Under the pieces are notes generated by a model. The model searched no databases, had not been told where the DNA came from, and was given only the letters and a program-made list of their open reading frames with translations. Positions 10,446 to 29,265 of a stretch of DNA of 46,652 nt are shown piece by piece; the stretch's first letter is position 1; every line of letters starts with the position of its first letter. Both the position numbers and the translations under genes were made by a program. Source of the stretch: Candidatus Giovannonibacteria bacterium RIFCSPHIGHO2_02_FULL_45_13 (GTDB lineage: Bacteria; Patescibacteriota; Minisyncoccia; UBA11713; 2-01-FULL-45-33); NCBI GenBank assembly GCA_001778635.1, contig MFHO01000001.1:1-46652 (forward strand), written 5' to 3'.

Positions 10446-11150
10446 ATGAAACTTTCGATTATTATTCCCGCATACAACGAGGAAAATACGATTTTGGAAA
10501 TTCTCCGGCGGATTGAGGTTGTGGATTTGGGCGATATAAATAAAGAAATTATTATTATTGACGATGGTTCAACCGACGGAACGCGCGATATTTTGAGGGG
10601 CCCAGAACAATCCGACAAATATAAAATTTTCTACCAGAAAAAAAATTGTGGCAAGGGCGCGGCTCTGCGGCGCGGATTTAAAGAGGCGACCGGGGATTTT
10701 ATTGTTATTCAGGACGCGGATTTGGAATATGATCCGGCAGATTTGCCCATAATGTTGGCGCCGATTTTAAATGGTCGGGCAAGTATTGTATTTGGTTCGA
10801 GGGCTTTGCGCAAAAACAATGTGCCGTTTAGCGCGATTTATTTTTACGGAGGTATTCTGTTGTCAAAAATATTCAACATATTATTCGGAACAAAACTTAC
10901 CGATATAGCCACTTGCTATAAACTATTTCCGCGCAAATTTGTTCCGCAATTGATGCATTTAGCCACCAACAATTTTGTTTTTGATGTGGTAGAAATTACT
11001 TATAGCCTTTCCGGACTCGGGAATATTGTAGAAGTTCCTATATCTTACAAAGCTCGCAGTAAGAAGAGCGGCAAGAAAATGAGCGCTTTACACGGCATTA
11101 AATGTTTATTCACAATGTTAAGGATAAAATTATCATCACATGTTTTTTGA
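10446..11150 (+). CDS. GT2 family glycosyltransferase (Dpm1/polyprenyl-phosphate sugar synthase-like)
   Basis: LSIIIPAYNEENTI, IIIDDGSTDGT, KNCGKGAALRRGF, VIQDADLEYDP. Confidence 0.8.
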   Translation: MKLSIIIPAYNEENTILEILRRIEVVDLGDINKEIIIIDDGSTDGTRDILRGPEQSDKYKIFYQKKNCGKGAALRRGFKEATGDFIVIQDADLEYDPADLPIMLAPILNGRASIVFGSRALRKNNVPFSAIYFYGGILLSKIFNILFGTKLTDIATCYKLFPRKFVPQLMHLATNNFVFDVVEITYSLSGLGNIVEVPISYKARSKKSGKKMSALHGIKCLFTMLRIKLSSHVF

Positions 11151-11967: not shown

Positions 11968-11968
11968 A

Positions 11969-13246: not shown

Positions 13247-14819
13247 TTTTATTTTATTTTTTTTATTTCTAATTTTAATTGTCTTTGGGGCATGGCAGTT
13301 ACCCAAAAGCCCCGCTACTTGGTTTGACGAGGGGATTAATTTGGGTATCGCTAAAAGCTTGATTCAAGACGGCGTTTACAGCTTAAAAATCGGACCGGAC
13401 GAGTTTGTGGAGAGCCGCCAATTTTTGATTACGAGCAATTATCCGGTTTTGCTGCCGGTGGCCTTATCCATAAAACTGTTCGGATTTAATTTGGCCGCGG
13501 CGAGAGCGCCGATGGTCTTGTTTTTATTTTTGTTCGCGCTGGCCGCTTATTTTTTAGTAAAAAAACTTTACGGAAAAACTGCGGCTCTTATGAGCGTTGC
13601 GCTGATTGTGTCTTTTACGCCGTTTTACGGCAACGGTAAGGCGGTTTTGGGAGAAATTCCTGGGTTATTTTATTTTCTATGCGCGCTGATTCTGCTTATA
13701 CTGCCAGGCAAGAAACCAAGCCGGGAGTATTTTTGCGGGTTTGGAAGCGAGCAAGCATGGTTTTTTCGCAGAGCGAAAAATTGCGAAGCTTTCACCCCGA
13801 GTTCCGGCGCTGGCCGGAACGAGGAAAGCAAAAACACTGCTCGGCTTGTTTTTAATCTGCGCTTGCTTTTTGCCGGCTTTTTTGCCGGCCTTTCTGCGGC
13901 AACAAAGCCGTTTTTTCTTATCGTGCCGATCGCGATTTTTGCCGGCGAGATTTTTTCACTTGGAGGCTTAGCCTCCAAGTTAAAAAGAATCGCGGTTTTG
14001 GCGGCTGGCGCGGTTTTGCCGATGGCCATTTGGCTTTACACGATTTTGCCGAGCTTTTCTTTCGGCGGGTTTTTATCGGCCATTACGTATTATTCCAATT
14101 CTTACGCTTCAACGAATTTCGGTAATTTAATCTGGGCGAATTTTCTGCGATTTTTCACCGAATCAACCCCGATCCATTTTGCTGTTTTATTTCTGGTGTC
14201 CGCCGCGTTTTTGGTATGGAAAAGAAAATCAAAACCGCGCTCCTCAACACTCGGTGTTGAATCCCCAAAAACACCGAGTGTTTTCCCGCGCGGTTTTGAT
14301 TTTATTGAAAACACATTGGCCATTTTTGTTTTGCTAACTATGGCTTTTTACCTCAAAACCCCCGGTTGGTACCGCTATTTTTTCCCCGCGCACATGATTT
14401 TATTTTTGATTTTCCCGGCTGCTTTGATTTATTTACTCAACAAAAAAATCGCAATCTCTGTGGTTGTTTTGTTATTTTTATTCCAGCTTGGATACACCAT
14501 TAATCAAAGAAACACAAGCATATATTATTCCGATGAAGCGGAAATGTTTTCAAAATATGTTATGGAAACAACAGCGCCGCAGGATAAAAATTTAATAATT
14601 AACGGACCAAGCGCCGCGTTTTTGATTGAGAATAGGCAGGTTTATCAGTATTTACAAATAAATCCCGTATTGTCTTTCGGGCGCGGCGATGCCGCGGAAT
14701 ATTCTTATATTGCTGTACAAGGCGCTTGGCCCGAGAGCTTGGATCAAAATCTCAAATCTGATTATACGGTTCATAAACAAGTCGGCCATTATGCTTTATA
14801 CAGAAAAATAAATTTTTAG
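13230..14819 (+). CDS. GT-C fold membrane glycosyltransferase (ArnT/PMT_2-like) carrying two in-frame palindromic inserts
   Basis: The N-terminal loop motif is ATWFDEGINLGIA (the DE motif of ArnT/PMT). The protein is polytopic with a C-terminal soluble domain. See the repeats at 13717-13848 and 14225-14303. Confidence 0.6.
   Translation: MLSRDNFILFFLFLILIVFGAWQLPKSPATWFDEGINLGIAKSLIQDGVYSLKIGPDEFVESRQFLITSNYPVLLPVALSIKLFGFNLAAARAPMVLFLFLFALAAYFLVKKLYGKTAALMSVALIVSFTPFYGNGKAVLGEIPGLFYFLCALILLILPGKKPSREYFCGFGSEQAWFFRRAKNCEAFTPSSGAGRNEESKNTARLVFNLRLLFAGFFAGLSAATKPFFLIVPIAIFAGEIFSLGGLASKLKRIAVLAAGAVLPMAIWLYTILPSFSFGGFLSAITYYSNSYASTNFGNLIWANFLRFFTESTPIHFAVLFLVSAAFLVWKRKSKPRSSTLGVESPKTPSVFPRGFDFIENTLAIFVLLTMAFYLKTPGWYRYFFPAHMILFLIFPAALIYLLNKKIAISVVVLLFLFQLGYTINQRNTSIYYSDEAEMFSKYVMETTAPQDKNLIINGPSAAFLIENRQVYQYLQINPVLSFGRGDAAEYSYIAVQGAWPESLDQNLKSDYTVHKQVGHYALYRKINF
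13717..13848. repeat. 132-bp palindromic (MITE/REP-like) element embedded in-frame in a CDS
   Basis: The termini CAAGCCGGGAGTATTTTTGC (13717-13736) and GCAAAAACACTGCTCGGCTTG (13828-13848) are imperfect inverted repeats. The inner perfect hairpin is GTTCCGGC-GCTG-GCCGGAAC (13801-13820). Length is 132 bp, which equals 44 codons. Confidence 0.6.
14225..14303. repeat. 79-bp nested perfect palindrome embedded in a CDS
   Basis: The outer 16-bp arms are AAAATCAAAACCGCGC (14225-14240) and GCGCGGTTTTGATTTT (14288-14303). The inner 13-bp arms are AACACTCGGTGTT (14246-14258) and AACACCGAGTGTT (14270-14282). Confidence 0.8.
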
Positions 14820-15536
14820 AATATCTTTTAACGTTTGAAACGAATCGCGGAGCACACTAATGTTGGACTTTCCTATGGTTTCCAAAACAACTGGAACCTC
14901 TTTTATTTGGAGCCCGGCGCGTTTTGCTTTGACCAAAAGTTCCAAATCAAAAGCAAAGCGGTCTATTTTTAGACTTGGCAGAAATTCCTCGGCGGCTTTT
15001 TTGGTAAGTCCTTTAAGCCCTGCCTGCGTGTCAGAAAATTCGAGATGAAGTAGATGGCGGACTAAAAACCCAAAACCCCAGTGGGTCAGATGTCTCACAA
15101 AGCCGATGTCGGAAGTTGGGTGTTGGGTGTTAGATGTTAGACCCGCCTGCCGGACGGGCAGGTTTCTATTGGCGATTACTAAATCCGTCCCGGATTTTAA
15201 AAGTTCAATCATTTTTTTAAAGTAACTTGTGCCGTACGGCAAATCTGCGTCGGTAAAAATAATAATGTTGCTTGAGGCGGCAGAGATGCCCTCGCGGACG
15301 CTCGCGCCCTTGCCGAGATTCATTTTGCGATCAATGAATTTAATCGCAGGATTATTTTGCGATTTCGCGCTTATGATTTCGGCTGTTTTATCCCAACCGC
15401 CGTCATTTATTACAATAATTTCTGCATTGAAATTTTCGGCGCCCAAAAAGTTCGTGAGCCTGTCTATGCTCTTGCCTATCACCGCCTTGTCGTTATAAAC
15501 TGGGATAATGATAGAAATTTCCGGAGCTAAACTCAT
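14796..15536 (-). CDS. GT2 family glycosyltransferase (polyprenyl-phosphate sugar synthase-like, soluble)
   Basis: ISIIIPVYNDKAV, IIVINDGGWDKT, NLGKGASVREG, IFTDADLPY, FSDTQAGLKG (the DxQ.G.K block). Confidence 0.75.
   Translation of the reverse strand: MSLAPEISIIIPVYNDKAVIGKSIDRLTNFLGAENFNAEIIVINDGGWDKTAEIISAKSQNNPAIKFIDRKMNLGKGASVREGISAASSNIIIFTDADLPYGTSYFKKMIELLKSGTDLVIANRNLPVRQAGLTSNTQHPTSDIGFVRHLTHWGFGFLVRHLLHLEFSDTQAGLKGLTKKAAEEFLPSLKIDRFAFDLELLVKAKRAGLQIKEVPVVLETIGKSNISVLRDSFQTLKDILKIYFSV
15115..15162. repeat. Four tandem 7-nt units followed by a GC hairpin, inside the GT2 CDS
   Basis: GTTGGGT GTTGGGT GTTAGAT GTTAGAC (15115-15142), then CCTGCC-GGACG-GGCAGG (15146-15162). Confidence 0.7.
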
Positions 15537-16929
15537 GATAGCTTTATGGGGATTAGGTATTACCTTTTTATTTGTTGTTGTTTTTACTTTTGTTTATTTT
15601 AAATTTTTCAGAGAGAACAAATTTGCCAAATCGCTTTTTGTTTTTACTTTCCTCGCCATTTTTGTTGTAGCCATTTTAAAACTGACTATTTTCTATTTTT
15701 TTCCTTATGGATATGTTTCAGACAGATTGCCGTTTTATGCTGTACCCTCGCCCAAAGCACTCGGTATTTGGTGGATGCTCGGCGCCTTAGGGATTTTCTT
15801 TTTATTTTTAAAATTCAGGGAAAAAATTGAAAAACTCAATGCTTTTAAATTTCTTTTGACGCTTTATTTAATCTTTATCGCTTTTAGCATCAGCGTCGCT
15901 GCAATACGCGAGGGTTTTTACAGCGTTTATGAGCCATTTACACGCACGAGATGGGAGTATACAGGAGACATGCTTTTGGTAACGAGTATTCCTGAATTTT
16001 TACGGGACTATGTTGCTCTTCAGCCGAAATTGACCGTGCATGCCAGCGTGCACCCTCCCGGCTACACTCTTATTTTGTACTTTTTTCATCAGTATCTCGG
16101 CGCCGGATTCGCCGGCTTAGCTGTTTTGATCATCATGCTCGGTGGCTTTGTTATATTTCCACTGTACTATTTTTTAAAGAATTTTGCCACCGAAGACAAT
16201 GTTCGCAGAGGGCTTCAGATTTTTATTTTTGTGCCAAGCTTTGTCATGATGAGCGCAACATCCATGGAGGCGGCCTTTTTGTTCTTTTCTTGGCTGGCGA
16301 TTGCGATTCTTTACGAGGGTTGGAGGCGCGGCGCATTCTTGTCCTTTTTGGGCGGCGTGGCCGCTGCCCTCGCGCTTTTTTTAAATTATTTGTTTGCGCT
16401 TTTGGCCCCGCTATTTTTAATATTATTTTTCATGCTTTATAAGCGCGGGATTGTTACAAGAATCATTCCCACTTTTTTTGGGTTTTTGATGTTTTTCGCG
16501 GCGCTTTATTTATGGACAGGTTACTCCATAATTGAAAATTTTTTTGTTGCTCACGGCAGATTATACCACAACGTTGGGAGCAATTTTGAATCCGCAATGT
16601 TGTATCTGGCCTATTTTGTCATGAATATATCTGCCTTTGCCGTTTATTTGGGTTTGCCCAACATAAAGGCGCTGATTCGCGGGACGACAGATTTGTTGCG
16701 CGAAAATAATTTTATTGGTTCCTCCGGCGCAATAATAGTTACCTTAATTATTTTTTTGGGTTTATTTCAAGGAGAGGTGGAGAGGCTTTGGCTGTTTTTG
16801 ACGCCCCTTTTCATTTTGCCTTTAATTAGAGCTACAGAAAATTTTGATAAAACCCAATTTGCATCGCTTTTATCTTTATTGTTTTTCCAGATAATTCTTA
16901 CGCAAACATTATTTTATACATATTGGTAG
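15535..16929 (+). CDS. Polytopic membrane protein, probable GT-C-like glycosyltransferase
   Basis: About 12 hydrophobic helices. VHASVHPPGYTLILYF resembles the HPPL block of GT39/ArnT-type enzymes. Start is 15535 (or 15508). Either start overlaps the divergent GT2 start. Confidence 0.45.
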   Translation: MIALWGLGITFLFVVVFTFVYFKFFRENKFAKSLFVFTFLAIFVVAILKLTIFYFFPYGYVSDRLPFYAVPSPKALGIWWMLGALGIFFLFLKFREKIEKLNAFKFLLTLYLIFIAFSISVAAIREGFYSVYEPFTRTRWEYTGDMLLVTSIPEFLRDYVALQPKLTVHASVHPPGYTLILYFFHQYLGAGFAGLAVLIIMLGGFVIFPLYYFLKNFATEDNVRRGLQIFIFVPSFVMMSATSMEAAFLFFSWLAIAILYEGWRRGAFLSFLGGVAAALALFLNYLFALLAPLFLILFFMLYKRGIVTRIIPTFFGFLMFFAALYLWTGYSIIENFFVAHGRLYHNVGSNFESAMLYLAYFVMNISAFAVYLGLPNIKALIRGTTDLLRENNFIGSSGAIIVTLIIFLGLFQGEVERLWLFLTPLFILPLIRATENFDKTQFASLLSLLFFQIILTQTLFYTYW

Positions 16930-16935: not shown

Positions 16936-17874
16936 ATGGAACAGCGCAAAGTTTCCGTTGTTGTACCGGTGTTTAACGAAGGCTCTTCGCTGGGAGTTTT
17001 GCATTCAGAAATTTTAGATGTGTTCAAAAAAACGCGCGTGCCCTTCGAAATAATTTACGTTGATGACGGATCATTTGACAATACGTGGGAAATTTTAAGT
17101 AAATTACCGCAAGCCAGCGCTATAAGTTTGCAGAAAAACTTCGGTCAGACCGTTGCTTTGGCCGCTGGCATAGAAAGAGCCAGCGGAGATATTATTGTTA
17201 CTTTGGATGGAGATTTGGAAAATGACCCGAATGACATACCAGATCTGTTGGATAAATTAAATTCCGGATACGATATTGTTTCGGGTTGGCGCGTTGCCAG
17301 GTGGAGGGGGCAGTTTTTGACAAGAAAATTGCCGTCTATTTTGGCTAACGCGGCAATTTCTTATGTGACAGGCGCCAAGCTCCATGATCATGGTTGCACG
17401 CTCAAAGCGTATAAAAAAGAGGCGATAAAAAACTTGCAACTTTCAGGGGATGCGCACAGAATGCTTGCGGCTTACGCTTATTTATTTAACAAAGCGCGCA
17501 TTGCGGAATTGGCAGTGAATCACCGCGCGAGAAAGTTCGGCAAGTCGCATTACGGCCCGATGCGTTCGTTCAAGGTTTTAATGGATCTGCTGTCGCTTTC
17601 GTTTTTTCATCGTTACAGCAATAGGCCTATGTATTTTTTCGGCGGCGTTGGTTTCGTAAGCCTATTTTTAGCCCTTATATTTTTTTTAGACATGCTTTAC
17701 CGCAAATACTTTTTGGGAGTAAGTTTTATCCAAACCCCTTTACCGGTATTGGTTGCTCTTGGCGTTATGATTGGCGCGCAATTTATTCTAATGGGGCTTT
17801 TGGCCGAGTTTTTCCAATGGAAATTGAGTCGGCCGCTTTATTATCAAATTAAACAAGAAGTTATAAATAAATAA
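16936..17874 (+). CDS. GT2 polyprenyl-phosphate glycosyltransferase (GtrB/ArnC/CsbB-like, two C-terminal TM helices)
   Basis: VSVVVPVFNEGSSL, IIYVDDGSFDNT, NFGQTVALAAGI, VTLDGDLENDPNDIPDLL, IVSGWR, DHGCTLKAY, and a C-terminal hydrophobic pair (YFFGGVGFVSLFLALIFF / LVALGVMIGAQFILMGLL). Confidence 0.82.
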   Translation: MEQRKVSVVVPVFNEGSSLGVLHSEILDVFKKTRVPFEIIYVDDGSFDNTWEILSKLPQASAISLQKNFGQTVALAAGIERASGDIIVTLDGDLENDPNDIPDLLDKLNSGYDIVSGWRVARWRGQFLTRKLPSILANAAISYVTGAKLHDHGCTLKAYKKEAIKNLQLSGDAHRMLAAYAYLFNKARIAELAVNHRARKFGKSHYGPMRSFKVLMDLLSLSFFHRYSNRPMYFFGGVGFVSLFLALIFFLDMLYRKYFLGVSFIQTPLPVLVALGVMIGAQFILMGLLAEFFQWKLSRPLYYQIKQEVINK

Positions 17875-17878: not shown

Positions 17879-19720
17879 ATGTGTGGCATAACCGGTTTTT
17901 ACGGGGGCGGCACAAAATACACATTGGAAAAAATGACTTTGACGCTGAAGCACAGAGGGCCGGATGGCGATGGATTTTTTTTCGACGAAATTCAAAAAAT
18001 AGGCTTGGGTCACAGGCGACTTGCTATTATCGATTTAGAAAAAGGTGGGCAGCCGATTTTTAATGAAGACAAAACCGTCGCGCTCGTTTTCAACGGAGAG
18101 ATTTATAATTTTAGAGACTTGCGGAAAAATTTAGAGCAAAAGCATGTTTTTACAACAAACACGGATACGGAAGTTATCGCGCATCTTTACGAAGATCACG
18201 GAGCCGACTGCTTTAAATATCTCAATGGGATGTTCGCCATCGCTCTTTATGATTCCAAGAGCAAGGCTTTGATTTTGGCTCGCGATCGCATGGGTAAAAA
18301 ACCGCTCTATTGGGGTGTTTTTGGGAACTGCCTGCTTTTTGGTTCAGAACCCAAATCGCTGTTTGATCATCCTGCATTCAAAAAAGAGCTTGACTTGTAT
18401 TCATTAAATAAATATTTAAGCTATGAATACATTCCTACGCCTCACAGTATTTATAAGGGAGTCTACAAATTGGAGCCTGCGTCTTATTTGGTTTGGCATG
18501 GCGGCAGAGCAGACATTAAAAGTTTTTGGCATATCTCTTCCGGCGGCAGTAAATTGAGTTTTGAAGAGTCATTAAATCGGCTTGACGGGTTGTTTTCTGA
18601 GAGCGTGGAAATGCGCATGGTTTCCGACGTTCCTTTGGGCGTTTTTTTAAGCGGCGGCATAGATAGTAGTACAATTGCTTATTACGCGCAAAAAAACAGC
18701 TTGCAAAAAATTAAAACTTTTTCCATTGGTTTTGACGAAAAAAGTTTCGACGAGTCTGATTATGCCAAAGAGGTCTCCGAATGTTTGGGTACGGAACATT
18801 TCGAGAAAAAATTTGCCAGCAAAGATTTGATAAATTTAGTCCCTAAAATTTTTGATTTTTTGGATGAGCCATTGGCGGACGCTTCTATTTTGCCCACTTT
18901 TTTGCTTTCGCAATTCGCACGAGACAAGGTAACTGTTGCTCTCGGGGGCGACGGCGGAGATGAGCTTTTCTGCGGTTACGACACTTTTTTAGCCGAAGGC
19001 GCTGGCAGAGTATATGAAAACATTCCGATTGCGGTTAGACAATATTTTATAGAACCGATTATCAAAGCGCTGCCAACGAGCGATAACAATTTTAGTCTGG
19101 ATTTTAAATTAAAGCAGTTTTTGAGAGGGGCTGGCGAACTCGGCGGGCGCAGGCACATGCTTTGGTTGGGGAGTTTTAACGGCGAAGAGCGCGGCAGGCT
19201 GTTTAAACCGGATGTGTGGTCAGTGCTTAAAGATGAGGACGTGTTTGAAGGTGTTGATAAATACGCGAATCTAAACCATCTTTATTTAAGAACTTACATG
19301 ATGGACGGAGTTTTGGTGAAAGTTGATCGCGCAAGCATGGCCAATTCTTTGGAGATAAGGTCGCCATTTTTGGATTGGATGGTTGTGGAGTTCGCAAATT
19401 CTTTGCCGCAAAATTTTAAGCTTAAGCATTTTACTACGAAGTATATTTTAAAAAAAATAATGGCAAACAAACTCCCACAAGCTATTATTAAAAGACCCAA
19501 AAAGGGTTTTGGTATACCCATGGCCATATGGCTTAAAAATGATCTGCGGGCATTTTGTGACGAGATTTTGTCTAAAAGAAATATAGACAAATCGGGTCTT
19601 TTTAATTTTGAGTTTGTGAATAAATTAAAACAAGAACACTTCACGGGGAAGCGCGATAACCGCAAACAACTCTGGACATTAATGGTATTTCAAATGTGGC
19701 AAGATAAGTGGGGCTTATGA
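17879..19720 (+). CDS. asnB: Asparagine synthase (glutamine-hydrolysing)-family amidotransferase
   Basis: N-terminal nucleophile MCGITGF, HRGPDG, the ATP-PPase loop SGGIDSS, 613 aa. Confidence 0.9.
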   Translation: MCGITGFYGGGTKYTLEKMTLTLKHRGPDGDGFFFDEIQKIGLGHRRLAIIDLEKGGQPIFNEDKTVALVFNGEIYNFRDLRKNLEQKHVFTTNTDTEVIAHLYEDHGADCFKYLNGMFAIALYDSKSKALILARDRMGKKPLYWGVFGNCLLFGSEPKSLFDHPAFKKELDLYSLNKYLSYEYIPTPHSIYKGVYKLEPASYLVWHGGRADIKSFWHISSGGSKLSFEESLNRLDGLFSESVEMRMVSDVPLGVFLSGGIDSSTIAYYAQKNSLQKIKTFSIGFDEKSFDESDYAKEVSECLGTEHFEKKFASKDLINLVPKIFDFLDEPLADASILPTFLLSQFARDKVTVALGGDGGDELFCGYDTFLAEGAGRVYENIPIAVRQYFIEPIIKALPTSDNNFSLDFKLKQFLRGAGELGGRRHMLWLGSFNGEERGRLFKPDVWSVLKDEDVFEGVDKYANLNHLYLRTYMMDGVLVKVDRASMANSLEIRSPFLDWMVVEFANSLPQNFKLKHFTTKYILKKIMANKLPQAIIKRPKKGFGIPMAIWLKNDLRAFCDEILSKRNIDKSGLFNFEFVNKLKQEHFTGKRDNRKQLWTLMVFQMWQDKWGL

Positions 19721-20472
19721 AGGACGCGCACTACCAAACTATTTATGATACGGAGGTTTCGCATTGGTGGTACAGAGTGCGCAGAAAAATTGTGCATGAT
19801 TTAATTTGGAAATACTTCCCGCATGGTCGTGATCTAAAAATACTTGATATTGGATGCGGAGCATGTCTGCTCGCCAAAGAATTGGAAGTTTACGGCGAGG
19901 TAAGCGGGTTGGATGTTTCGCCAATGGCTATTGAGTTTTGCCGTGAACGCGGCGTTTTGCAAGTTGTGCATGGGAGCGCGGAACGTATTCCTTTTGGAGA
20001 TCGGTCGTTTGATTTGATTTTGGCATTGGATGTTATTGAACACATTGAAGACGATCGGCGAGCTTTGCAAGAAATTTACCGCGTTTTAAAGCCGGGCGGT
20101 GTGGCTATTATCTTTGCCCCGGCCTTCAACTTGCTTTGGGGCGTTTCCGACGAATTAAGCAATCATTATCGCAGATATACTATTAAAGAATTGCGTAAGA
20201 AAATTCGAGAAAGCGGTTTTGAAATAGCGCGTCTGTCCTATTTTAATTTTTTTCTTTTTGTTCCAATTGCTCTAGTGCGGCTGGCTGCCCGTTTGTTCAG
20301 GCTGTCAATAGAATCCGAAAACACCATTGGATCGGCGCTTATTAATTCCATGCTATATAAAATTTTTAATTTGGAATCCAAAATGCTTAAATATATAAAT
20401 GTGCCGTTTGGAGTATCGATTCTTGCGGTATGTCGCAAACCGCATTACAATAATACTGCACAAGATGATTAA
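19708..20472 (+). CDS. Class I SAM-dependent methyltransferase
   Basis: ILDIGCGACLL (motif I), ALDVIEHIEDD, VLKPGGVAIIFAP. Confidence 0.8.
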   Translation: MGLMKDAHYQTIYDTEVSHWWYRVRRKIVHDLIWKYFPHGRDLKILDIGCGACLLAKELEVYGEVSGLDVSPMAIEFCRERGVLQVVHGSAERIPFGDRSFDLILALDVIEHIEDDRRALQEIYRVLKPGGVAIIFAPAFNLLWGVSDELSNHYRRYTIKELRKKIRESGFEIARLSYFNFFLFVPIALVRLAARLFRLSIESENTIGSALINSMLYKIFNLESKMLKYINVPFGVSILAVCRKPHYNNTAQDD

Positions 20473-21322
20473 AGATCTAATAATCTCAATGCGTCCCAAG
20501 CAGTGGATTAAAAACCTGTTTCTTTTTGCCGCGATAATTTTCGTAAAACAGTTTACCGACGTTGAAAAACTCACCGCAGTGTTTGAGGCGTTTATGATTT
20601 TTTGCTTTGCCTCAAGCGCTGTTTATCTGATAAACGATGTTTGGGACGCGCCGTATGACAGGAGGCACCCGCAAAAGCGCTCAAGACCAATTGCTTCCGG
20701 CGTTTTCCCGGCGCTGGAAGCCGTTTTTGCCGCTTTGGTTTTCGGAGCCCTCGCGATTTTTTGGAGCTTTTACATAAATAATTTTTTCGCGCTGGCCGTA
20801 ATCGGCTATGTCGCTTTAATGCTAATGTACTCTTTTTACCTTAAGCGCCTGGTGATAGTGGATGTGATAGTTATCGCTTTGGGGTTTGTAATCCGCGTGA
20901 TTGCTGGCGCTGTAGCCATAAACGTCAGATTTTCCGAGTGGCTGATTCTTTCCACTTTTTTTCTGGCTTTGTTTTTGGCCGTGTCAAAAAGAAAAAACGA
21001 GCTCCAGCATGCGGATGAGACCGAAGCCAGGGCAGGTCTTGGACAATACTCTTTGGATCTTTTGGACCAAATGAATACAATTGTTTTGCCCTCCACCATA
21101 ATCACCTACGCTTTTTACACTTTCAGTTCCGAACACAGCAAATTGCTTATGATCACAGTTCCCATCGTGCTTTACGGGCTTTTTAGATATTTATTTTTGA
21201 TTAATACTAAAAGATGGAGCGATGATGGCCCGACGGATGATCTGCTTTCAGACAAAAATTTGACGCTCACCGTTTTTATCTGGCTGGCGGTGTCTGCCGC
21301 AATAATTCTTTATGCCGGATAG
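20465..21322 (+). CDS. UbiA-family polyprenyl-phosphate 5-phosphoribosyltransferase (DPPR synthase-like)
   Basis: N-terminus MRPKQWIKNLFLFAAIIF and the Asp-rich block YLINDVWDAPYDRRHPQKRSRPIASG match the decaprenyl-phosphate phosphoribosyltransferase subfamily pattern (NDxxDxxxDRxHPxKxxRPIAsG). About 8 TM helices. I moved the start to 20465, which overlaps the upstream stop by 8 nt. Confidence 0.75.
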   Translation: MIKDLIISMRPKQWIKNLFLFAAIIFVKQFTDVEKLTAVFEAFMIFCFASSAVYLINDVWDAPYDRRHPQKRSRPIASGVFPALEAVFAALVFGALAIFWSFYINNFFALAVIGYVALMLMYSFYLKRLVIVDVIVIALGFVIRVIAGAVAINVRFSEWLILSTFFLALFLAVSKRKNELQHADETEARAGLGQYSLDLLDQMNTIVLPSTIITYAFYTFSSEHSKLLMITVPIVLYGLFRYLFLINTKRWSDDGPTDDLLSDKNLTLTVFIWLAVSAAIILYAG

Positions 21323-21713
21323 CGAAAGGTTTTTTGAGGAGCTGGATATGCCGTGGTCGGGCGCTGTGATTTTTTTGGATGTTGACGGTACTTTACGGCC
21401 GGACGGAGAGAACGATATGAGTCCGGAAGTTTTAAGAAAATTGGATGAATTAAAAACAAAAAACACAGTTCATTTGGTTAGCAATCAAGACGGCAAGGCA
21501 AAAAAACCAAGCCGGAAAGTCGCGGATGGAACAGATATAGCGGGCAAGAAAGTCATAGTGATCGGCGATAAATTTTTAACGGACGGGCTTTTTGCCAAAA
21601 ATATCGGCGCGGAATTTATTAAGGTTAGGCGCAAAATATCAGGCCGCGAATCATTTTTTGTAAAAATTACTTATTTAATGGATGACTTGGCATGGAAAAT
21701 AAGCAATATTTAA
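21312..21713 (+). CDS. HAD-superfamily phosphatase (small, family IIIA/YqeG-like)
   Basis: Motif I FLDVDGTL, motif II LVSN, a conserved K (KKPS), motif III VIGDKFLTDG. The start could alternatively be 21348. Confidence 0.55.
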   Translation: MPDSERFFEELDMPWSGAVIFLDVDGTLRPDGENDMSPEVLRKLDELKTKNTVHLVSNQDGKAKKPSRKVADGTDIAGKKVIVIGDKFLTDGLFAKNIGAEFIKVRRKISGRESFFVKITYLMDDLAWKISNI

Positions 21714-22735
21714 TTACCGGCGGCTCCGGATTTTTGGGCATAAATTTGGTCAGGTTTTTGCTTGCAAAAAATCAGCGTGTAAGAGTTTTGGATATTGCGG
21801 ATTTTGATTATCCCGAAAAAAATAAAATTGAATTTAATTTAGGCGACGTCCGCGATAATCAGGCGATAGATAAAACAATGAGAGGCGTTGACGTTGTTGT
21901 GCATGCTGCTGCAGCCCTCCCGCTTTACTCGCGAGAAGACATTTTTTCAACGGAAGTTGAGGGCACAAAAAATGTTTTAGAAAGCGCAAAAAAGCACAAT
22001 GTTGACAGATTTATTCACATCTCAAGCACTGCGGTTTACGGCATTCCTGATCACCACCCGATTTATGAGAATGATAAACTTATTGGAGTGGGCCCCTACG
22101 GCGAAGCCAAAATCTTGGCAGAAGAGGAGTGTTTGAAAAAAAGAAAAGAAGGAATGGTTGTGTCCATTCTGCGCCCGAAATCTTTTATCGGCCCTGAGCG
22201 GTTGGGAGTTTTCGCGCTTTTTTACGATTGGGCAAGCGCGGGGCATAATTTTCCAATGATCGGCAGCGGCAAAAACCGCTATCAGCTTTTGGATGTTGAG
22301 GATTTATGCGATGCGATTTGGCTTTCGGCGACTTTGCCGAAAGAAAAAACCAATGACGCTTTCAACATTGGCGCCAAAGAATTTATGACGATGCGCGAGG
22401 ACTATCGGGCGGTTTTGGATCGGGCCGGATATGGAAAAAAAATAATCGGCTTTCCGGCGGCGCCGATGATTTTGGCTTTAAGATTTTTAGAGATTTTGCG
22501 CCTTTCCCCGCTTTACAAATGGGTTTACGAAACCGCAGGCAAAGACTCTTTTGTGTCAATAGAAAAAGCGGAGCGAGTTTTGGGGTATCATCCAAAATAT
22601 TCCAACAAACAGGCACTCATTCGCAACTACGAATGGTACTTGGCCAATATGGATAAATTTAAAGATCAATCCGGAATTTCCCACCGAGTGCCGTGGAAAC
22701 AGGGGATACTAAAAATCGCTAAGTATTTTTTTTGA
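21692..22735 (+). CDS. NAD-dependent epimerase/dehydratase (extended SDR)
   Basis: ITGGSGFLGINLVRFLL Rossmann motif and the catalytic YGEAK. Confidence 0.8.
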   Translation: MENKQYLITGGSGFLGINLVRFLLAKNQRVRVLDIADFDYPEKNKIEFNLGDVRDNQAIDKTMRGVDVVVHAAAALPLYSREDIFSTEVEGTKNVLESAKKHNVDRFIHISSTAVYGIPDHHPIYENDKLIGVGPYGEAKILAEEECLKKRKEGMVVSILRPKSFIGPERLGVFALFYDWASAGHNFPMIGSGKNRYQLLDVEDLCDAIWLSATLPKEKTNDAFNIGAKEFMTMREDYRAVLDRAGYGKKIIGFPAAPMILALRFLEILRLSPLYKWVYETAGKDSFVSIEKAERVLGYHPKYSNKQALIRNYEWYLANMDKFKDQSGISHRVPWKQGILKIAKYFF

Positions 22736-22739: not shown

Positions 22740-23390
22740 ATGAGCCACGCTGAATATTGTGGCCAATTTATAAAACCCGGCGGCAAGGTTTTGGATGTCG
22801 GCTCCGGCAGAGGCGATTTTTTGCGCGGGATGGCGAGTCTCGGGTTCGATGCGCGTGGAGTTGAGTCAAGCCCGGAGCGCATTTTTTCCGCCACAGGCGG
22901 AAAGGTTGTCCGGGCAAGCGCGGAAGATTTGCCGTTCCAAGATAATTATTTTGATTTTGTAAATTGCGCCGAGGTCAGCGAGCACGCTGACAATCCTGCA
23001 AAAATGCTTGCGGAAATTTTTCGTGTTTTGAAGTCGGGCGGGAAATGCTACATAAGTTTTCACAATCGTTGCGGCGTTTACGATTACCACTATCATTTAT
23101 ATTTTATTAATTGGATGCCAAGAGCGTGGACCGAGCCAATTTTAAAGTTTTTGGGAAAACAAAAAAAAGATGGTCAGGCGGGCCGTCAAAAATTAATTTC
23201 CATGCACTACTATACTTGCGGCAGAATTTTAAGGATGCTTCGCGATGCTGGTTTTTCTGCCGCAGATATTCGAGCGGAAAGAATAAAAAAAATCTCAGGC
23301 GTTTTTCATATTTTATTTTTATTTTTTTATTTCTGTTTGCTCCGCCCGTTTTATTTCAATACTTTCCACTTTCTGCTTGCTAAACCTTAA
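22740..23390 (+). CDS. Class I SAM-dependent methyltransferase with a hydrophobic C-terminal tail
   Basis: VLDVGSGRGDF, CAEVSEHADNP, VLKSGGKCYISF. The C-terminus is ILFLFFYFCLLRPFYF. Confidence 0.75.
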   Translation: MSHAEYCGQFIKPGGKVLDVGSGRGDFLRGMASLGFDARGVESSPERIFSATGGKVVRASAEDLPFQDNYFDFVNCAEVSEHADNPAKMLAEIFRVLKSGGKCYISFHNRCGVYDYHYHLYFINWMPRAWTEPILKFLGKQKKDGQAGRQKLISMHYYTCGRILRMLRDAGFSAADIRAERIKKISGVFHILFLFFYFCLLRPFYFNTFHFLLAKP

Positions 23391-24417: not shown

Positions 24418-25157
24418 AAGCCGTAATTTTAGCTGGTGGCGACGGTACCAGGCTTCACCCACTTACGTTAGTTACGAATAAGCATCTTTTACCTGTTTAT
24501 AATAAGCCGGTTATTTATTACGCGATAGAAAAATTGGCGGCTGCCGGAGTTGACAAAATAATGGTAGTTACCTCGCCTCGGCAAGTTGAACATTTTGTGA
24601 ATTTGCTAGGTTCCGGGCAGAATTTTAAGTCCAAAAATACCGGCAAGCAGACCCAGATAGTTTACGGAATACAAAACGAGCCTAGGGGCATCGCGGAGGG
24701 GCTTTGGATTGCAAAAGATTACATTAGCAACGATAATTGCGTGCTTTATTTGGGTGACAATATTGTGGAAGACGACATCGGCGAGCATGTTGCTAATTTT
24801 AAAGACGGCGCGACGATTTTTTTAAAAAAAGTGGAGGACCCAGTTCGATTCGGAGTAGCATCCGTGGATAAAATGGGTAATGTTTTGGAAATCGAAGAAA
24901 AGCCGAAAAACCCAAAATCAAATCTGGCCGTGGTCGGAGTTTATATTTATGACAACTCCGTTTTTAATAAAATGACCGGCCAGCCCAAATCAGCGCGCGG
25001 CGAATATGAAATTACATATGTAAACAACAAGTATATTGAAGAAGGCACATTAAAATCTGTTTTGCTTAAAAAAGATTGGTTTGACGTGGGAACATCTGAA
25101 AGTTTGTTTGCGGCCGGAAATTTTATGAGAAACAAAATTTCACGCCTTGAATCATGA
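24414..25157 (+). CDS. rfbA: Glucose-1-phosphate thymidylyltransferase-like sugar nucleotidyltransferase (short form)
   Basis: [36 protein letters not shown]. ATGA overlap with rfbB. Nucleotide specificity cannot be read from the sequence. Confidence 0.78.
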   Translation: [247 protein letters not shown]

Positions 25158-25756
25158 GTGATTTAATATACAGATCGCCGCTTTTGTATAGATTAGCGAT
25201 ATTTTTTTTATATAGAGGCGATTATTCAGAGAGATATGAAATATTGGACCGATTTATTAAAGAAAGGTCATCTGTGGTTGAACTATGCTGCGGTCCGGGC
25301 GACTTCTATCGCGGATTTTTAAAGAAGAAAAATGTAAACTATTTGGGGGTTGATAATAGCGCCGACTTTATTAAACGCTGTAAAAAGAAAGGAATCAATG
25401 TAATTTGGGGCGACGTATCGCAGTTCAATTTTATCAAAAGTGATTATTATATAATAATATCTTCGCTTTATCAGTTTCACCCCGATATAAGAGAGTTAAT
25501 AAATAAAATGTTACAGTACGCCAAATGCGTGTTAATATCAGAACCGATTAAGAATATTTCAAATTCAAAATATAAAATTATTTCTAAAATTGCCGCATAT
25601 CTCACAAATAAAAAAAATTATGAAAACAATTTCCATTTTACTGAAAAAAGTTTGGACACAATGATGCTGGCTGGTTTTAAAAACAAAATTGTTTACGTTC
25701 AAACAACAAAAAACGGCAGGGAAAAAATATACGTGTTAAAAAATGAATCAAACTGA
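25154..25756 (+). CDS. Probable class I SAM-dependent methyltransferase
   Basis: VVELCCGPGDF (motif I-like), YLGVDNS, IIISSLYQF. ATGA overlap with rfbA. Confidence 0.6.
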   Translation: MSDLIYRSPLLYRLAIFFLYRGDYSERYEILDRFIKERSSVVELCCGPGDFYRGFLKKKNVNYLGVDNSADFIKRCKKKGINVIWGDVSQFNFIKSDYYIIISSLYQFHPDIRELINKMLQYAKCVLISEPIKNISNSKYKIISKIAAYLTNKKNYENNFHFTEKSLDTMMLAGFKNKIVYVQTTKNGREKIYVLKNESN

Positions 25757-26456
25757 CTTATCTTTAGTCGTCGCTTGTTACAATGAGGAGCCTCACTTGG
25801 CGGAAAGCATCGCCGAAATTGAGGCGATAATGGAGCAAACTTTGTATTCTTATGAATTGATTTTTATTGATGATTGTAGCCAAGACAAAACAATAGATGT
25901 GATAAAAAAAATTTGCGCAGAGAGAAACAATTGCCGCTATGTTTTTCATAAAAAAAACATCGGGCGCGGAGGAACGGTGCGCGAAGGATTCCTTATGGCG
26001 CGGGCACCCTTCGCCGGTTTTTTGGACATTGATTTAGAGGTGCACGCGCGCTATATTCCAAGCATGATTTTGTGGCTGGAAAAAGGTTATGATATGGTTG
26101 CTATAGAAAGAACCGAAAAATTGAGCTCGAACCCTTATAAGTTATTGCGTTTAATTGTAAGTGGGGTTGGCGCAAGAGTGGTTCGCTATTTTCTGCGCAC
26201 CAACTTCCCAGATTCGGCATCGGGATTTAAGTTTTTTAATATGAACACGATGAAAGATGTGATTGCAAATACCAAAGATGATGGTTGGTTTTGGGATACG
26301 GAAATAATTTTAAGAGCAGAAAAAGCAAATAAAAAACTGAAATCCATACAAGGAGTTTTTGAGCATCGATTGGATAAAAAAAGCACCATGCGCCTTATAC
26401 CCGATACCATCGCGTACATCAAGACAATTTTAAGGTTTAAGAAAAACAAGCTATGA
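25743..26456 (+). CDS. GT2 family glycosyltransferase (ArnC/Dpm1-like)
   Basis: LSLVVACYNEEPHL, LIFIDDCSQDKT, NIGRGGTVREGF, FLDIDLEV. Confidence 0.8.
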   Translation: MNQTDLSLVVACYNEEPHLAESIAEIEAIMEQTLYSYELIFIDDCSQDKTIDVIKKICAERNNCRYVFHKKNIGRGGTVREGFLMARAPFAGFLDIDLEVHARYIPSMILWLEKGYDMVAIERTEKLSSNPYKLLRLIVSGVGARVVRYFLRTNFPDSASGFKFFNMNTMKDVIANTKDDGWFWDTEIILRAEKANKKLKSIQGVFEHRLDKKSTMRLIPDTIAYIKTILRFKKNKL

Positions 26457-27613
26457 GAAAAGATTTTTTAACGTTCGGCAATCCGCTGATAGAGCAGCCG
26501 GAAATCGATGAAGTCGTTGATTCTCTAAAAAGCGGCTGGCTCGGGACTGGGCCGAAGGTAAAAAAGTTTGAAGAGTTGTTCGGCAAATATAAGGGCGTTA
26601 AATATGCCGTGGCTCTTAATTCTTGCACGGCCGCTTTACATTTGGCCTTGCTCGCCATTGGCATAAAACCAAAAGACGAAGTGATTGTGCCGGCAATGAC
26701 TTTTGTCGCAACCGCGAATGTCGTTATTCATGCCGGCGGAACTCCAGTTCTGGCTGATTGCGAGAAGGGCACCATGAACATTGATCCGGCTGATGTGGAA
26801 AAAAAGATTACCAAAAAAACCAAAGCCGTCATCCCAGTGCATATGGCCGGGCGCTCCTGCGATATGGATGCGGTAATGGCGCTGGCTAAAAAATATAATT
26901 TAAAGGTGGTGGAAGACGCCGCTCATGCCGTTGAAACGGAATATCGCGGCAAAAAGGCGGGGACCTTCGGGGATATCGGGTGTTTTAGCTTTTATGCCAC
27001 AAAAAATTTGGTTACCGGAGAGGGCGGCATGGCCATTACAAACAACGGGGAATACGCCGATAAAATGAGGATTTTGTCTTTGCACGGAATTAGCGCGGAT
27101 GCGTGGCAACGATTCGGAAGCGACGGATATAAGCACTATCAGGCGATATACCCGGGCTATAAGTACAACATGATGGATTTGCAGGCGGCGCTGGGCATTC
27201 ATCAGCTAAAGAAAATAGATAAACATTGGGCGAGGCGTCAGGAAATATGGAACAAGTACAACGAAGCGTTTAAAAATTTGCTGGTGTTTTTGCCGGCGCA
27301 GATTGAGCCAAACACGAAGCACGCATATCATCTTTATACTCTGCTTTTAAACATAGACAATTTAAAAATAACCCGCGACCAATTTTTAGAAAAAATGACG
27401 AAGAATAACATTGGGGTTGGGGTGCATTTTATTGCTGTGCATATGCATCAGTATTATCGCGACAGATTCGGATATAAAAAAGGAGATTTTCTCAGCGCAG
27501 AATGGATTTCGGAGAGAACAGTTTCTTTGCCGCTTTCTCCGAAATTAACGGACGACGACGTTAACGACGTTATAACTGCGGTAACGGACGTTTTGAACCA
27601 GCAACGAAAATGA
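26453..27613 (+). CDS. DegT/DnrJ/EryC1/StrS-family PLP-dependent sugar aminotransferase
   Basis: SGWLGTGPKVKKFEE, AVALNSCTAALHLAL, DEVIVPAMTFVATAN, the PLP-lysine region FSFYATKNLVTGEGG. Confidence 0.9.
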   Translation: MRKDFLTFGNPLIEQPEIDEVVDSLKSGWLGTGPKVKKFEELFGKYKGVKYAVALNSCTAALHLALLAIGIKPKDEVIVPAMTFVATANVVIHAGGTPVLADCEKGTMNIDPADVEKKITKKTKAVIPVHMAGRSCDMDAVMALAKKYNLKVVEDAAHAVETEYRGKKAGTFGDIGCFSFYATKNLVTGEGGMAITNNGEYADKMRILSLHGISADAWQRFGSDGYKHYQAIYPGYKYNMMDLQAALGIHQLKKIDKHWARRQEIWNKYNEAFKNLLVFLPAQIEPNTKHAYHLYTLLLNIDNLKITRDQFLEKMTKNNIGVGVHFIAVHMHQYYRDRFGYKKGDFLSAEWISERTVSLPLSPKLTDDDVNDVITAVTDVLNQQRK

Positions 27614-29265
27614 CCAAAAGATTTTTTAAAGAACACTATTTAATCGCCGTTTCGGGGCTGCTGCTGACGCTGTTAATTGAGGCGCCGCTTTTGGCGTTTC
27701 CTTTTGTTTCAAAAAATTATCAAGACATCAATATCCCGCATTTCGGCACGGACTCCCATTTTTATCTAAGCCGCGCGCAAGAGGCATTGGAGCGGAATAA
27801 TCTCGGAAATGCCTTTTTGCGCGAGGGCAAAGACAACCAAGACGCATATTTTGTTTACAACGAACGGGCACTGGCGCTGCTGCCGAGAGTTTTTGGGCTG
27901 GCAGACGCGGTTAGCGCCCCGACATTTTATGCAATTTATAATTTCGCCGGCGTATTTGCCTTAATTTTGCTTATTTATTTTTTTACGCTGCAGCTTGCGC
28001 CGGGCAAGCTGCTGGCGGCCGTTGCCGCGATTTTTGTCGTTGGGGGATATCACATTGCATATAAAGATTTTTTTTATATGGATTTTAACCTTTACGGCAG
28101 GCCGATTTTTCCCTATTTAAGTTCTTTGGCGCTTTTTCTTTACTTATTTTTTTTGGTCAAGAGCGTCAATACGGACAGGGTGGCTTACAAAATATCGGCA
28201 GGGGTTTTATTCGGCGCTCTGTTTTACGTTATTTTTTATGGCTGGACTTTTGTGCTGGCCCTAAACGGCGCGCTGTTTTTGTTTTATTTATTTAAAAAAG
28301 ATTTCGCGCGCCTCAAAATGATTGCGCAGATAAGCGCGATAGGGGTTTCCCTTGGATTATATAATTTTGTGAAAATGCTGCGCTTCGCCGCCTCCGATAT
28401 CGGATCCCAATCTTCGTATTTTAATTGGGCTTATCATACGCATAAACCTATTTTTAGCAAAGTGACGGCGGCCGCGCTCGCGCTGTTTTTATTTTTTTAC
28501 TATAAAAAGAAGCGAGATCCGAATCTTATTTTAATTCTCGGCTTAATATCGGCGTTTTGGATTGTTTTAAATCAGCAGATTATCACCGGCAGAGTGGAGC
28601 AGCCCGCGCATTACCATTGGTGGTTTATCGTCCCGCTCGCAATAATTTCGGCCCTCTATATGTTATGGGTTTTGCTGGAAAAATACGAGTGGCGAAGATT
28701 TTTATTTGGATTTATTCTTTTTGCCGTTTTTGCCCACAGCGCTTTGGGGCAATACCGTTCTTTTTGGACAACCTTGCCGGGGAAAGAATATGAACAGCTA
28801 TACCGGCCGATAATAGCGGAATTGCAAAAAGATCCCAACTCCGGCGTGATTTTGGCGGCGGATGACTATCTGGCGTATTTATTTACCATTTACACACGCC
28901 ACGATTTATTTTGGCACACTGGCGCGACAGCGACGGTGATGCCTATGAGCCGTTTCTACGACACGCTTTACGTTTACGCTTATCTTAGCAAAAATCCTCT
29001 CGCCGACCCAAGTTACAAGCAGATTTATCAACACATCAAAGGTTTTGAATCCGGTTTGGATTATTATGATTATATTAGCAAGGCTACTGGCGTCGCGGAG
29101 ATCATAAAACCGCAAATTGACGCGAATAATCTTTTAAAAAAGTACGGCGTTAACTATATTGTTTGGGACAAAAACAGGAATCCGGAGTGGGACTTGTCTT
29201 TTATAAAAAACCTCCGCCCGGTAACTTCTTACAACAATATTTATTTATTTCAAATAATGTATTAA
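27610..29265 (+). CDS. Large polytopic membrane protein, function unknown (candidate GT-C/YfhO-type transferase)
   Basis: 551 aa, about 11 hydrophobic helices, then a ~170-aa soluble C-terminal domain. An early loop is HFGTDSHFYLSRAQEA. ATGA overlap with the aminotransferase. No family recognised with confidence. Confidence 0.4.
   Translation: MTKRFFKEHYLIAVSGLLLTLLIEAPLLAFPFVSKNYQDINIPHFGTDSHFYLSRAQEALERNNLGNAFLREGKDNQDAYFVYNERALALLPRVFGLADAVSAPTFYAIYNFAGVFALILLIYFFTLQLAPGKLLAAVAAIFVVGGYHIAYKDFFYMDFNLYGRPIFPYLSSLALFLYLFFLVKSVNTDRVAYKISAGVLFGALFYVIFYGWTFVLALNGALFLFYLFKKDFARLKMIAQISAIGVSLGLYNFVKMLRFAASDIGSQSSYFNWAYHTHKPIFSKVTAAALALFLFFYYKKKRDPNLILILGLISAFWIVLNQQIITGRVEQPAHYHWWFIVPLAIISALYMLWVLLEKYEWRRFLFGFILFAVFAHSALGQYRSFWTTLPGKEYEQLYRPIIAELQKDPNSGVILAADDYLAYLFTIYTRHDLFWHTGATATVMPMSRFYDTLYVYAYLSKNPLADPSYKQIYQHIKGFESGLDYYDYISKATGVAEIIKPQIDANNLLKKYGVNYIVWDKNRNPEWDLSFIKNLRPVTSYNNIYLFQIMY

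Follow-up and report, generated by a model that had tools for sequence, protein, structure and literature searches.

A predicted lipid-linked pentofuranose donor module in a surface-glycan locus of a Candidatus Giovannonibacteria genome

Contig MFHO01000001.1 of Candidatus Giovannonibacteria bacterium RIFCSPHIGHO2_02_FULL_45_13 (assembly GCA_001778635.1), a member of the candidate phyla radiation (CPR), carries three consecutive forward-strand genes for a UbiA-family membrane protein, a phosphatase of the haloacid dehalogenase (HAD) superfamily, and an extended short-chain dehydrogenase/reductase (SDR). These genes, a candidate module for the synthesis of a lipid-linked pentofuranose, are the subject of the present analysis, which covered positions 1 to 46,652 of the contig (46,652 nucleotides, nt; here called the window). 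The UbiA-family protein (20465-21322; PF01040) has 285 amino acids (aa) and about 8 to 9 transmembrane (TM) helices, the small capless HAD-IIIA phosphatase (21312-21713) has 133 aa, and the NAD-type SDR (21692-22735), which matches the Pfam family Epimerase, has 347 aa. The open reading frame (ORF) of the first gene begins at 20399 at its largest, and the ATG at 20465 agrees with its homologs. The overlaps between neighbors are 11 nt (UbiA and HAD) and 22 nt (HAD and SDR), and the three genes are translationally coupled. Pfam matches and many public homologs of each protein identify the three ORFs as real genes rather than chance frames. The closest database proteins come from Candidatus Giovannonibacteria and are 84% (UbiA), 100% (HAD), and 80% (SDR) identical.

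The UbiA-family protein begins MIKDLIISMRPKQWIKNL (the start of the sequence is also given as MIKDLIISMRPKQW). A preliminary description of the window, made from the sequence alone, had placed the motif MRPKQWIKNL at its N terminus; the motif is present, but as residues 9 to 18. The second feature named there, the NDVWDAPYDRRHPQKRSRPIASG block, spans residues 57 to 79, and the HAD motifs, the extended SDR, and the overlapping gene boundaries are likewise present as described. The protein matches PF01040 (1.3e-27) and scores 232.4 bits, just under the cutoff of 234, with NF008977, and 207.0 bits, at the threshold of 207, with NF008978, the two NCBIfam equivalogs for decaprenyl-phosphate phosphoribosyltransferase (DPPRS), the name that its CPR homologs carry at NCBI. 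Over its full length (residues 4 to 282) it matches the structure of Rv3806c of Mycobacterium tuberculosis (PDB 8j8j; E 2.4e-40).

Cryo-electron microscopy and mutagenesis of Rv3806c have identified the residues that contact Mg and the pyrophosphate (N73, D77, R22, K87, R90, Y138, and K143), the 5-phosphate (K28, Y70, and Y157), and the ribose O3 (Q135) of phosphoribosyl pyrophosphate (PRPP), as well as those that contact decaprenyl phosphate (K28, Y157, and K191) (PMC10994848). When residues were transferred through a HMMER alignment, 12 of the 13 PRPP and lipid-phosphate contact residues were found to be kept (R22, K28, Y70, N73, D74, D77, D81, K87, R90, Y138, K143, and K191). The thirteenth, Y157, is replaced by phenylalanine, which is also found at this position among mycobacteria (PMC10994848). 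The pyrophosphate/Mg set, made up of an NDxxDxxxD motif and a lysine/arginine cluster, corresponds to N57, D61, R10, K71, R74, Y122, and K127 of the window protein, and the phosphoribose and lipid-phosphate positions correspond to K16, Y54, F141, and K175. The aspartate-rich motif therefore keeps the spacing of the phosphoribosyltransferases, its residues aligning with those of Rv3806c. The Q135 position, a methionine in the window protein, departs from this pattern: in an alignment of 26 family members all other contact positions are invariant, while this one varies (N, M, L, T, S, or Q), even in members encoded beside DprE1 and DprE2 genes. On the basis of the family scores, the match to 8j8j, and the conserved PRPP-contact residues, we predict with high confidence that the UbiA-family protein is a polyprenyl-phosphate phosphoribosyltransferase of the DPPRS/PPPRS subfamily, the Rv3806c clade in which it had been placed at the outset. 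In a neighbor-joining tree of UbiA proteins labeled by accessory genes, the accessory types are scattered instead of forming clades, and the sugar can therefore not be predicted from it.

The HAD protein carries the motifs DVDGTL (motif I) and GDKFLTDG (motif IV). Its Pfam matches are PF09419 (1.8e-07; 31.3 bits against a cutoff of 20.4) and PF13242 (5e-06; 26.8 bits against 22), and with TIGR01662 it scores 41.6 bits, slightly under the cutoff of 44.6. By its sequence it is a capless HAD-IIIA protein of the YqeG/Gep4 type with all catalytic motifs present, and the DxDGT, S/T-N, K-P, and GDKxxTD motifs are invariant among 27 homologs. PF09419, the nearest Pfam family, is named for phosphatidylglycerophosphate (PGP) phosphatase, a lipid phosphomonoesterase. 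Within the Giovannonibacteria subgroup, 18 residues that most relatives possess between motifs II and III are deleted; the missing segment is probably a helix-strand unit, and the deletion is a lineage trait rather than decay. At 133 aa the protein is unusually minimal, with every catalytic residue retained.

The strongest evidence for the function of the HAD protein comes from gene fusion. A homologous HAD-IIIA domain forms the N terminus of the UbiA enzyme in a member of the Paceibacterota (L010, 8654-9949), a member of the Saccharibacteria (L011, 5086-6372), and a further CPR locus (L114, 5696-6997); these fusion proteins have 428 to 433 aa, and the SDR gene lies directly 3′ of each fusion gene. 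In three other loci (L007, L008, and L093) the HAD is encoded separately and adjoins UbiA or the SDR. The CPR fusions match NF006088 over the UbiA half only, whereas a rhizobial HAD-UbiA fusion (L025), with a HAD-IB-like domain, matches this model over its whole length (609 bits). Since the fused domains belong to different HAD subfamilies, a HAD was joined to the phosphoribosyltransferase at least twice independently. We consider it likely, by analogy, that the HAD protein of the window is the 5′-phosphatase of polyprenyl-phosphate-ribose-5-phosphate. The preliminary description had given it this role in place of a PAP2 phosphatase; the fusions agree with that proposal, and no PAP2 protein was found in the window. 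Because the window protein is HAD-IIIA and the NF006088-type domain is HAD-IB-like, the assignment rests on analogy and fusion, not on orthology.

Other phosphatases stand beside DPPRS genes on annotated plasmids: a separate HAD-IB in Lactococcus, a PAP2 protein in Marivivens, a PHP-domain protein in Haloterrigena, and an EEP-family protein in Streptomyces. A replicon of Burkholderia arboris (L109) carries a HAD-UbiA fusion, an SMR-like ORF, and large ORFs, with no SDR related to that of the window.

The SDR matches the Pfam family Epimerase (1.3e-41). Its NAD site reads TGGSGFLG (T9-G10..G13..G16), the NAD-type Asp34 ends strand 2, and its invariant catalytic set is GalE-like (S111 and Y136/K140, in YGEAK). 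The sequence SSTAVYG occupies the site where the RmlB-like protein of the window has STDEVWG; the SDR thus lacks the Asp-Glu acid/base pair of the dehydratases. Every NCBIfam equivalog scores below its threshold, including those for HpnA (116 bits; cutoff, 368) and GalE (68 bits; cutoff, 262), which indicates a distinct, uncharacterized family. No close relative of the SDR has a solved structure, and its best match among PDB sequences has an E value of 3.9e-24. A Foldseek search with the AlphaFold model (predicted local distance difference test score, 83) returned epimerases, dehydratases, and decarboxylases, all at ≤28% identity; as these are generic extended SDRs of mixed function, the fold does not discriminate the reaction type. 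Two elements are specific to the family, a hydrophobic helix at residues 256 to 268 and a conserved, amphipathic C-terminal HRVPWKQGILKIAKYFF helix whose hydrophobic moment falls within the top 5% of the windows of the protein. Neither element is present in the RmlB-like nucleotide-sugar SDR of the window, and together they would fit an SDR that works at the membrane surface.

To place the SDR in its genomic context, we compared 18 loci, the window included, that were collected from SDR orthologs of at least 67% identity. A DPPRS-type UbiA gene is immediately adjacent in 8 of the 18 (the window, L007/L029, L008, L010, L011, L013, L093, and L114). The orthologs are 67 to 80% identical across CPR lineages, Ignavibacteria, Planctomycetes, Anaerolineae, and Margulisiibacteriota, while the co-located UbiA and HAD proteins are just 30 to 58% and 30 to 45% identical, a difference that points either to very uneven constraint or to a horizontal transfer of the SDR apart from them. 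A second sample consisted of 16 annotated plasmids and secondary replicons with an SDR homolog of 33 to 52% identity. Here, at least 9 of the 16 homologs lie within ∼8 kb of a DPPRS-type UbiA gene, namely those of four haloarchaeal megaplasmids, Streptomyces sp. SAT1, Nonomuraea, Rhizobium sp. CCGE531, Sinorhizobium fredii NGR234, and Mesorhizobium japonicum pMLa. CPR bacteria, Planctomycetes, actinomycetes, rhizobia, and haloarchaea all have members of the SDR family encoded next to DPPRS-type UbiA genes.

Three further arrangements were seen among these loci and their relatives. A plasmid of Haloterrigena sp. KLK7 (L026) carries, at 5147-13294, a DPPRS gene, a PHP-domain protein, the SDR, two GT-C-type glycosyltransferases, and a DMT transporter. 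The cluster also occurs on Natronococcus and Halostagnicola replicons, with haloarchaeal SDRs 48 to 52% identical to that of the window, and is apparently the archaeal form of a lipid-linked pentofuranose system. A cluster on symbiosis plasmids is conserved between Rhizobium sp. CCGE531 (L025) and S. fredii NGR234 (L028, pNGR234a, beside nodS/nodU), in the order SDR, SMR, small hypothetical protein, GMC oxidoreductase, 658-aa membrane protein, second SDR, and HAD-UbiA fusion; with two SDRs and an FAD-type oxidoreductase, it is a more elaborate system of the pentofuranose type. In Peregrinibacteria and Magasanikbacteria (L001-L004), UbiA homologs 54 to 57% identical to the window protein are accompanied by a different SDR of 312 to 314 aa (27% identical to the window SDR) and by GT4 genes, with no HAD, which may be a further variant of the accessory enzymes.

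Homologs of the mycobacterial epimerization enzymes were sought with DprE1-like and DprE2-like probes taken, together with PAP2, GtrA, and HAD-IB probes, from annotated plasmids (L021-L023). In tblastn searches, the PAP2, DprE1-like, and DprE2-like probes, from L022 and L023, gave no match in the window or in L001-L020, and GtrA and HAD-IB homologs were likewise not found in the window or in related loci. Pfam scans of 41 of the 43 window ORFs of at least 150 aa revealed no FAD_binding_4 or adh_short-type protein. The search for a DprE1-like FAD oxidase that the preliminary description had suggested thus found none within the window, and a DprE1 or DprE2 homolog is absent from every SDR-containing locus examined. 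In a UbiA-seeded metagenome sample, 80 loci were kept, mostly on short contigs and dominated by one clade of 40 to 46% identity. DprE1-like genes were present in nine of these loci, seven of which also had DprE2-like genes; apart from the few loci with a HAD and an SDR considered below, the rest had no recognizable partner. The sample marks the HAD-plus-SDR variant as a minority type without yielding a clean frequency. Taken together, this is a modular system with interchangeable accessories, in which HAD-IIIA plus SDR is one recurrent variant, clustered most consistently in CPR bacteria.

The nearest characterized counterpart is the pathway of Citrobacter youngae O1 and O2 described by Kelly, Duong, Nothof, Lowary, and Whitfield (PNAS 2024; PMC11127046). 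There, ORF15 is a HAD-type phosphoribose phosphatase (PRP) fused to a UbiA-type PPPRS that is 31% identical to Rv3806c; in vitro, it converts PRPP to farnesyl-phosphate-ribofuranose, the HAD-type PRP domain stripping the 5′-phosphate. ORF14 is a MATE flippase, and ORF12 is a GT-C (GT136). In the O2 type (locus MH325884.1), ORF13, a single cytoplasmic GalE-like SDR, turns the ribofuranose of the side chain into xylofuranose, the C3 epimer; the O1 type has ribofuranose only and no epimerase. Among the systems surveyed in that study, those containing arabinofuranose have DprE1/E2 homologs and those containing xylofuranose have an ORF13 homolog; the DPPRS, DprE1-like, and DprE2-like type occurs outside Actinobacteria in the pilin arabinosylation genes of Pseudomonas aeruginosa PA7. 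Further candidate loci listed there include that of Rhizobium sp. CCGE531 and a Caudoviricetes phage with an unfused phosphatase gene (PMC11127046).

Like the O2 system, the window combines a UbiA-type phosphoribosyltransferase that would use PRPP, a HAD-superfamily phosphatase, and one GalE-like SDR instead of DprE1/DprE2, with GT-C proteins in the locus. Compared by description, its SDR and ORF13 have GxxGxxG and YxxxK motifs in common; a homolog 35% identical to the window SDR is encoded within the Rhizobium sp. CCGE531 locus, and the phosphatase is unfused, as in the Caudoviricetes example. In contrast to C. youngae, the window HAD is a separate gene (fused in CPR relatives) and a capless HAD-IIIA, no MATE or SMR flippase is recognized, no GT-C adjoins the module, and the host is a CPR bacterium. 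The mycobacterial Rv3806c pathway shares the homologous first enzyme, with its PRPP- and lipid-phosphate-binding residues conserved, and the same logic, in which a lipid-linked ribofuranose-5-phosphate is dephosphorylated, epimerized by redox chemistry, and used by GT-C enzymes; it differs in having PAP2, the FAD oxidase DprE1, and the classical short SDR DprE2, none of which was found in the window, where the SDR is extended and GalE-like. A Flammeovirgaceae plasmid (L022), whose UbiA homolog is 33% identical, carries DprE1-like and DprE2-like genes, unlike the window and its SDR-type relatives. On the Lactococcus plasmid (L021; DPPRS, HAD-IB, and GtrA), a separate HAD gene directly follows the DPPRS gene as in the window, but no similarity was detected between its HAD-IB and the window HAD, and the plasmid has GtrA and no SDR. 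A system that joins a phosphoribosyltransferase, a HAD phosphatase, one SDR epimerase, and a GT-C was therefore already on record in 2024, and the window is a further example rather than the novel compact arrangement it was first taken for; the differences from C. youngae are the phylum, the HAD subfamily, and the lack of a recognizable flippase and of an adjacent GT-C. In the literature that could be searched, no publication on systems of this kind in Patescibacteria was found.

We conclude that the three genes probably make up the arm that synthesizes the donor, on the cytoplasmic face, in a three-component system for pentofuranose glycosylation like that of C. youngae. First, and with strong support from the sequence, the UbiA enzyme would transfer 5-phosphoribose from PRPP to polyprenyl phosphate, giving polyprenyl-phosphate-ribofuranose-5-phosphate. 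Second, as the fusions, the order and overlap of the genes, and the example of ORF15 suggest, the HAD would remove the 5′-phosphate to leave polyprenyl-phosphate-ribofuranose. Third, the NAD-dependent SDR, associated with the membrane, would oxidize and re-reduce one ring hydroxyl to produce another pentofuranose; this step is suggested by the recurrent SDR-UbiA adjacency, the motif content, and the ORF13 precedent. By the sole biochemical precedent, the product would be the C3 epimer, xylofuranose, which by this analogy is more likely than arabinofuranose, the possible C2 epimer. Fourth, the lipid-linked sugar would be flipped outward, and GT-C enzymes would transfer the sugar to a glycan or protein on the surface of the CPR bacterium. 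The earlier functional reading of the module is thus essentially right. Its proposal that a single SDR takes over from DprE1/E2 holds insofar as the SDR stands in their place and neither is found in the window; the 2′-epimerization that it assumed is not established, the ORF13 precedent being xylofuranose.

Candidates for the fourth step lie elsewhere in the locus. Two GT-C-type proteins could consume the lipid-linked sugar, one of 539 aa and ∼9 TM helices (8786-10405, minus strand; PMT/PMT_2; PF02366, 5.6e-06, and PF13231, 1.6e-04) and one of 529 aa and ∼10 TM helices (13230-14819, plus strand; PMT_2; PF13231, 2.3e-07). Both PMT/PMT_2 proteins are encoded at least 5.6 kb from the module; in L010, a distance of 2.5 kb separates an ortholog of the first (38.7% identity) from the module, and GT-C genes adjoin the module directly in L008, L011, and L026. 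A polytopic membrane protein of 551 aa and of no known family (27610-29265, plus strand) is a possible further GT-C; both L007, with three copies, and L008 have homologs of it close to the module. The sole flippase candidate in the window, a speculative one, is a membrane protein of 473 aa and no known family with ∼12 TM helices by hydropathy (15508-16929, plus strand), of which a 60% identical homolog is present in L007. The preliminary description had spoken of many GT-C proteins; two PMT/PMT_2 proteins can be recognized, and three other polytopic membrane proteins have no usable Pfam or NCBIfam match, even at relaxed thresholds. The locus also encodes a GtrB-like GT2 (16936-17874) with two C-terminal TM helices.

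Several observations weigh against assigning the module to such a system. With respect to the later steps, the GT-C genes that neighbor the module in L008 and L011 have no counterpart in the window, and the GtrB-like GT2 could feed the GT-Cs with a hexose (as polyprenyl-phosphate-hexose) instead; that the product of the module feeds the GT-Cs of the locus, as had been suggested, is therefore not established. No SMR, GtrA, or MATE flippase was recognized in the window, although SMR and MATE proteins were covered only by Pfam and NCBIfam scans of ORFs of at least 150 aa, which a small SMR gene would escape. With respect to the phosphatase, the protein belongs to a HAD subfamily other than that of the NF006088 fusions and is missing the 18 residues present in most relatives. 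With respect to the SDR, no UbiA gene was found in the available flanks of 10 of the 18 loci (L009, L012, L014-L018, and L111-L113), and orthologs of 71 to 73% identity stand alone in unrelated contexts (L111-L113, the Ignavibacteria loci L012, L016, and L017, and L015), several stand-alone orthologs being in plainly non-glycan surroundings. Finally, a HAD and an SDR are both nearby in only 2 of the 80 UbiA-seeded metagenome loci.

An unlikely alternative retains the same pathway and makes the SDR a single-protein 2′-epimerase that yields polyprenyl-phosphate-arabinofuranose without DprE1/DprE2. The lack of a DprE1 or DprE2 homolog in the window and in all SDR-containing loci would fit it, and the SDR type and the DprE1/E2 type never occur in the same locus, as expected of alternative solutions to one problem. 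An NAD-retaining extended SDR could, moreover, carry out redox chemistry at C2, and CDP-tyvelose 2-epimerase is among the PDB sequence matches. However, all arabinofuranose systems surveyed by Kelly et al. had DprE1/E2, and ORF13 caused the formation of xylofuranose (PMC11127046); the sequence of the SDR gives no sign of C2 versus C3. A bolder reading, which we regard as doubtful, extends to the whole SDR family: its members, from CPR bacteria and Planctomycetes to actinomycetes, rhizobia, and haloarchaea, might be widespread single-subunit, NAD-retaining polyprenyl-phosphoribofuranose epimerases that either perform the DprE1/DprE2 reaction alone or make a pentofuranose new to glycans. If so, the cross-phylum identity of 67 to 80% would reflect a tightly constrained active site for the lipid-linked sugar.

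The main rival for the SDR in particular, which is kept alive by the stand-alone orthologs and which we consider improbable, is that it is a soluble nucleotide-sugar enzyme for another sugar of the locus, so that UbiA and HAD alone would make polyprenyl-phosphate-ribofuranose. The SDR has the fold and motifs of nucleoside diphosphate (NDP)-sugar epimerases, RmlB- and RmlA-like genes lie ≤2 kb downstream of it, highly similar SDRs are found alone in many genomes, and ribofuranose-only systems without an epimerase exist (C. youngae O1 and the Lactococcus plasmid L021). Against this, adjacency to DPPRS-type UbiA genes recurs over two domains of life with changing gene orders, and the HAD and SDR genes overlap. 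Soluble NDP-sugar enzymes do not, in addition, typically have a hydrophobic insertion and an amphipathic tail like those of the SDR, which reaches no NCBIfam equivalog threshold of any nucleotide-sugar enzyme.

That the UbiA-family protein would be an ordinary aromatic or heme prenyltransferase (MenA/UbiA/CyoE-like) with coincidental neighbors, as its superfamily and the Joint Genome Institute label “4-hydroxybenzoate polyprenyltransferase” on several homologs might suggest, is rejected as very improbable indeed: models for heme o synthase, UbiA, MqnP, GGGP, and chlorophyll synthase give only 16 to 50 bits against the 207 to 232 of the DPPRS models, the only non-DPPRS solved structure matched is the aromatic UbiA 4od4 (E 0.12), and the protein has the phosphoribose-specific K28, Y70, and Y157(F) positions, in keeping with the finding that the phosphoribose-binding sites of Rv3806c are not conserved in ordinary UbiA prenyltransferases (PMC10994848).

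CPR bacteria have tiny genomes and largely unknown envelopes. If the module makes a lipid-linked pentofuranose, these bacteria coat their surfaces with pentofuranoses built from PRPP on a lipid carrier, the strategy that underlies mycobacterial arabinan and some enterobacterial O-antigen side chains. For the phosphatase step, a HAD subfamily other than that of the NF006088-type fusions would have been recruited and independently fused. The interest lies mainly in the SDR, a member of a widespread, unusually conserved, and uncharacterized family that accompanies DPPRS-type genes in bacteria and archaea. Knowing its sugar would extend the rules by which pentofuranoses in glycans are predicted from sequence, and, were the product arabinofuranose, the SDR would be a single enzyme that does the work of DprE1/DprE2, a pair of drug targets.

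The module is flanked by two S-adenosylmethionine (SAM)-dependent methyltransferase genes on the same strand. The upstream gene (19708-20472; class I; Methyltransf_11, 2.2e-25), a possible accessory, overlaps the UbiA gene by 8 nt and is translationally coupled to it; in L114, the HAD-UbiA fusion is preceded by a methyltransferase weakly related to it (30% identity over 77 aa). The second SAM methyltransferase gene (22740-23390; Methyltransf_11, 3.1e-20) lies directly 3′ of the SDR gene, 4 nt from its stop codon. According to the Pfam and NCBIfam scans of the window ORFs, the surface-glycan locus extends over ∼38 kb downstream of rpoC (716-4342) and of an insertion sequence (IS)-type integrase, and contains five GT2 and one GT4 glycosyltransferases, RmlA- and RmlB-like proteins, an AsnB-like amidotransferase, many methyltransferases, and a NeuB-centered nonulosonic-acid set. 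The integrase gene (5364-6482, minus strand; rve domain) separates rpoC from the glycan locus.

The nonulosonic-acid-type set of this CPR genome occupies 34584-41304 and 26453-27613. It comprises NeuB, a UDP-GlcNAc 2-epimerase-like protein, an SDR, a methyltransferase, a CMP-type cytidylyltransferase, and two GFO/IDH/MocA oxidoreductases, with a DegT aminotransferase upstream. A protein of 520 aa (33040-34602, minus strand) has a Capsule_synth (KpsC/KpsS-like) domain, which is unusual for a CPR genome. Together with the two that flank the module, the methyltransferase genes at 11140-11967, 25154-25756, 32167-33018 (minus strand), 37663-38622, and 41246-42532 bring the number across the locus to seven, two of them of the FkbM type, which suggests that the glycan is heavily methylated.

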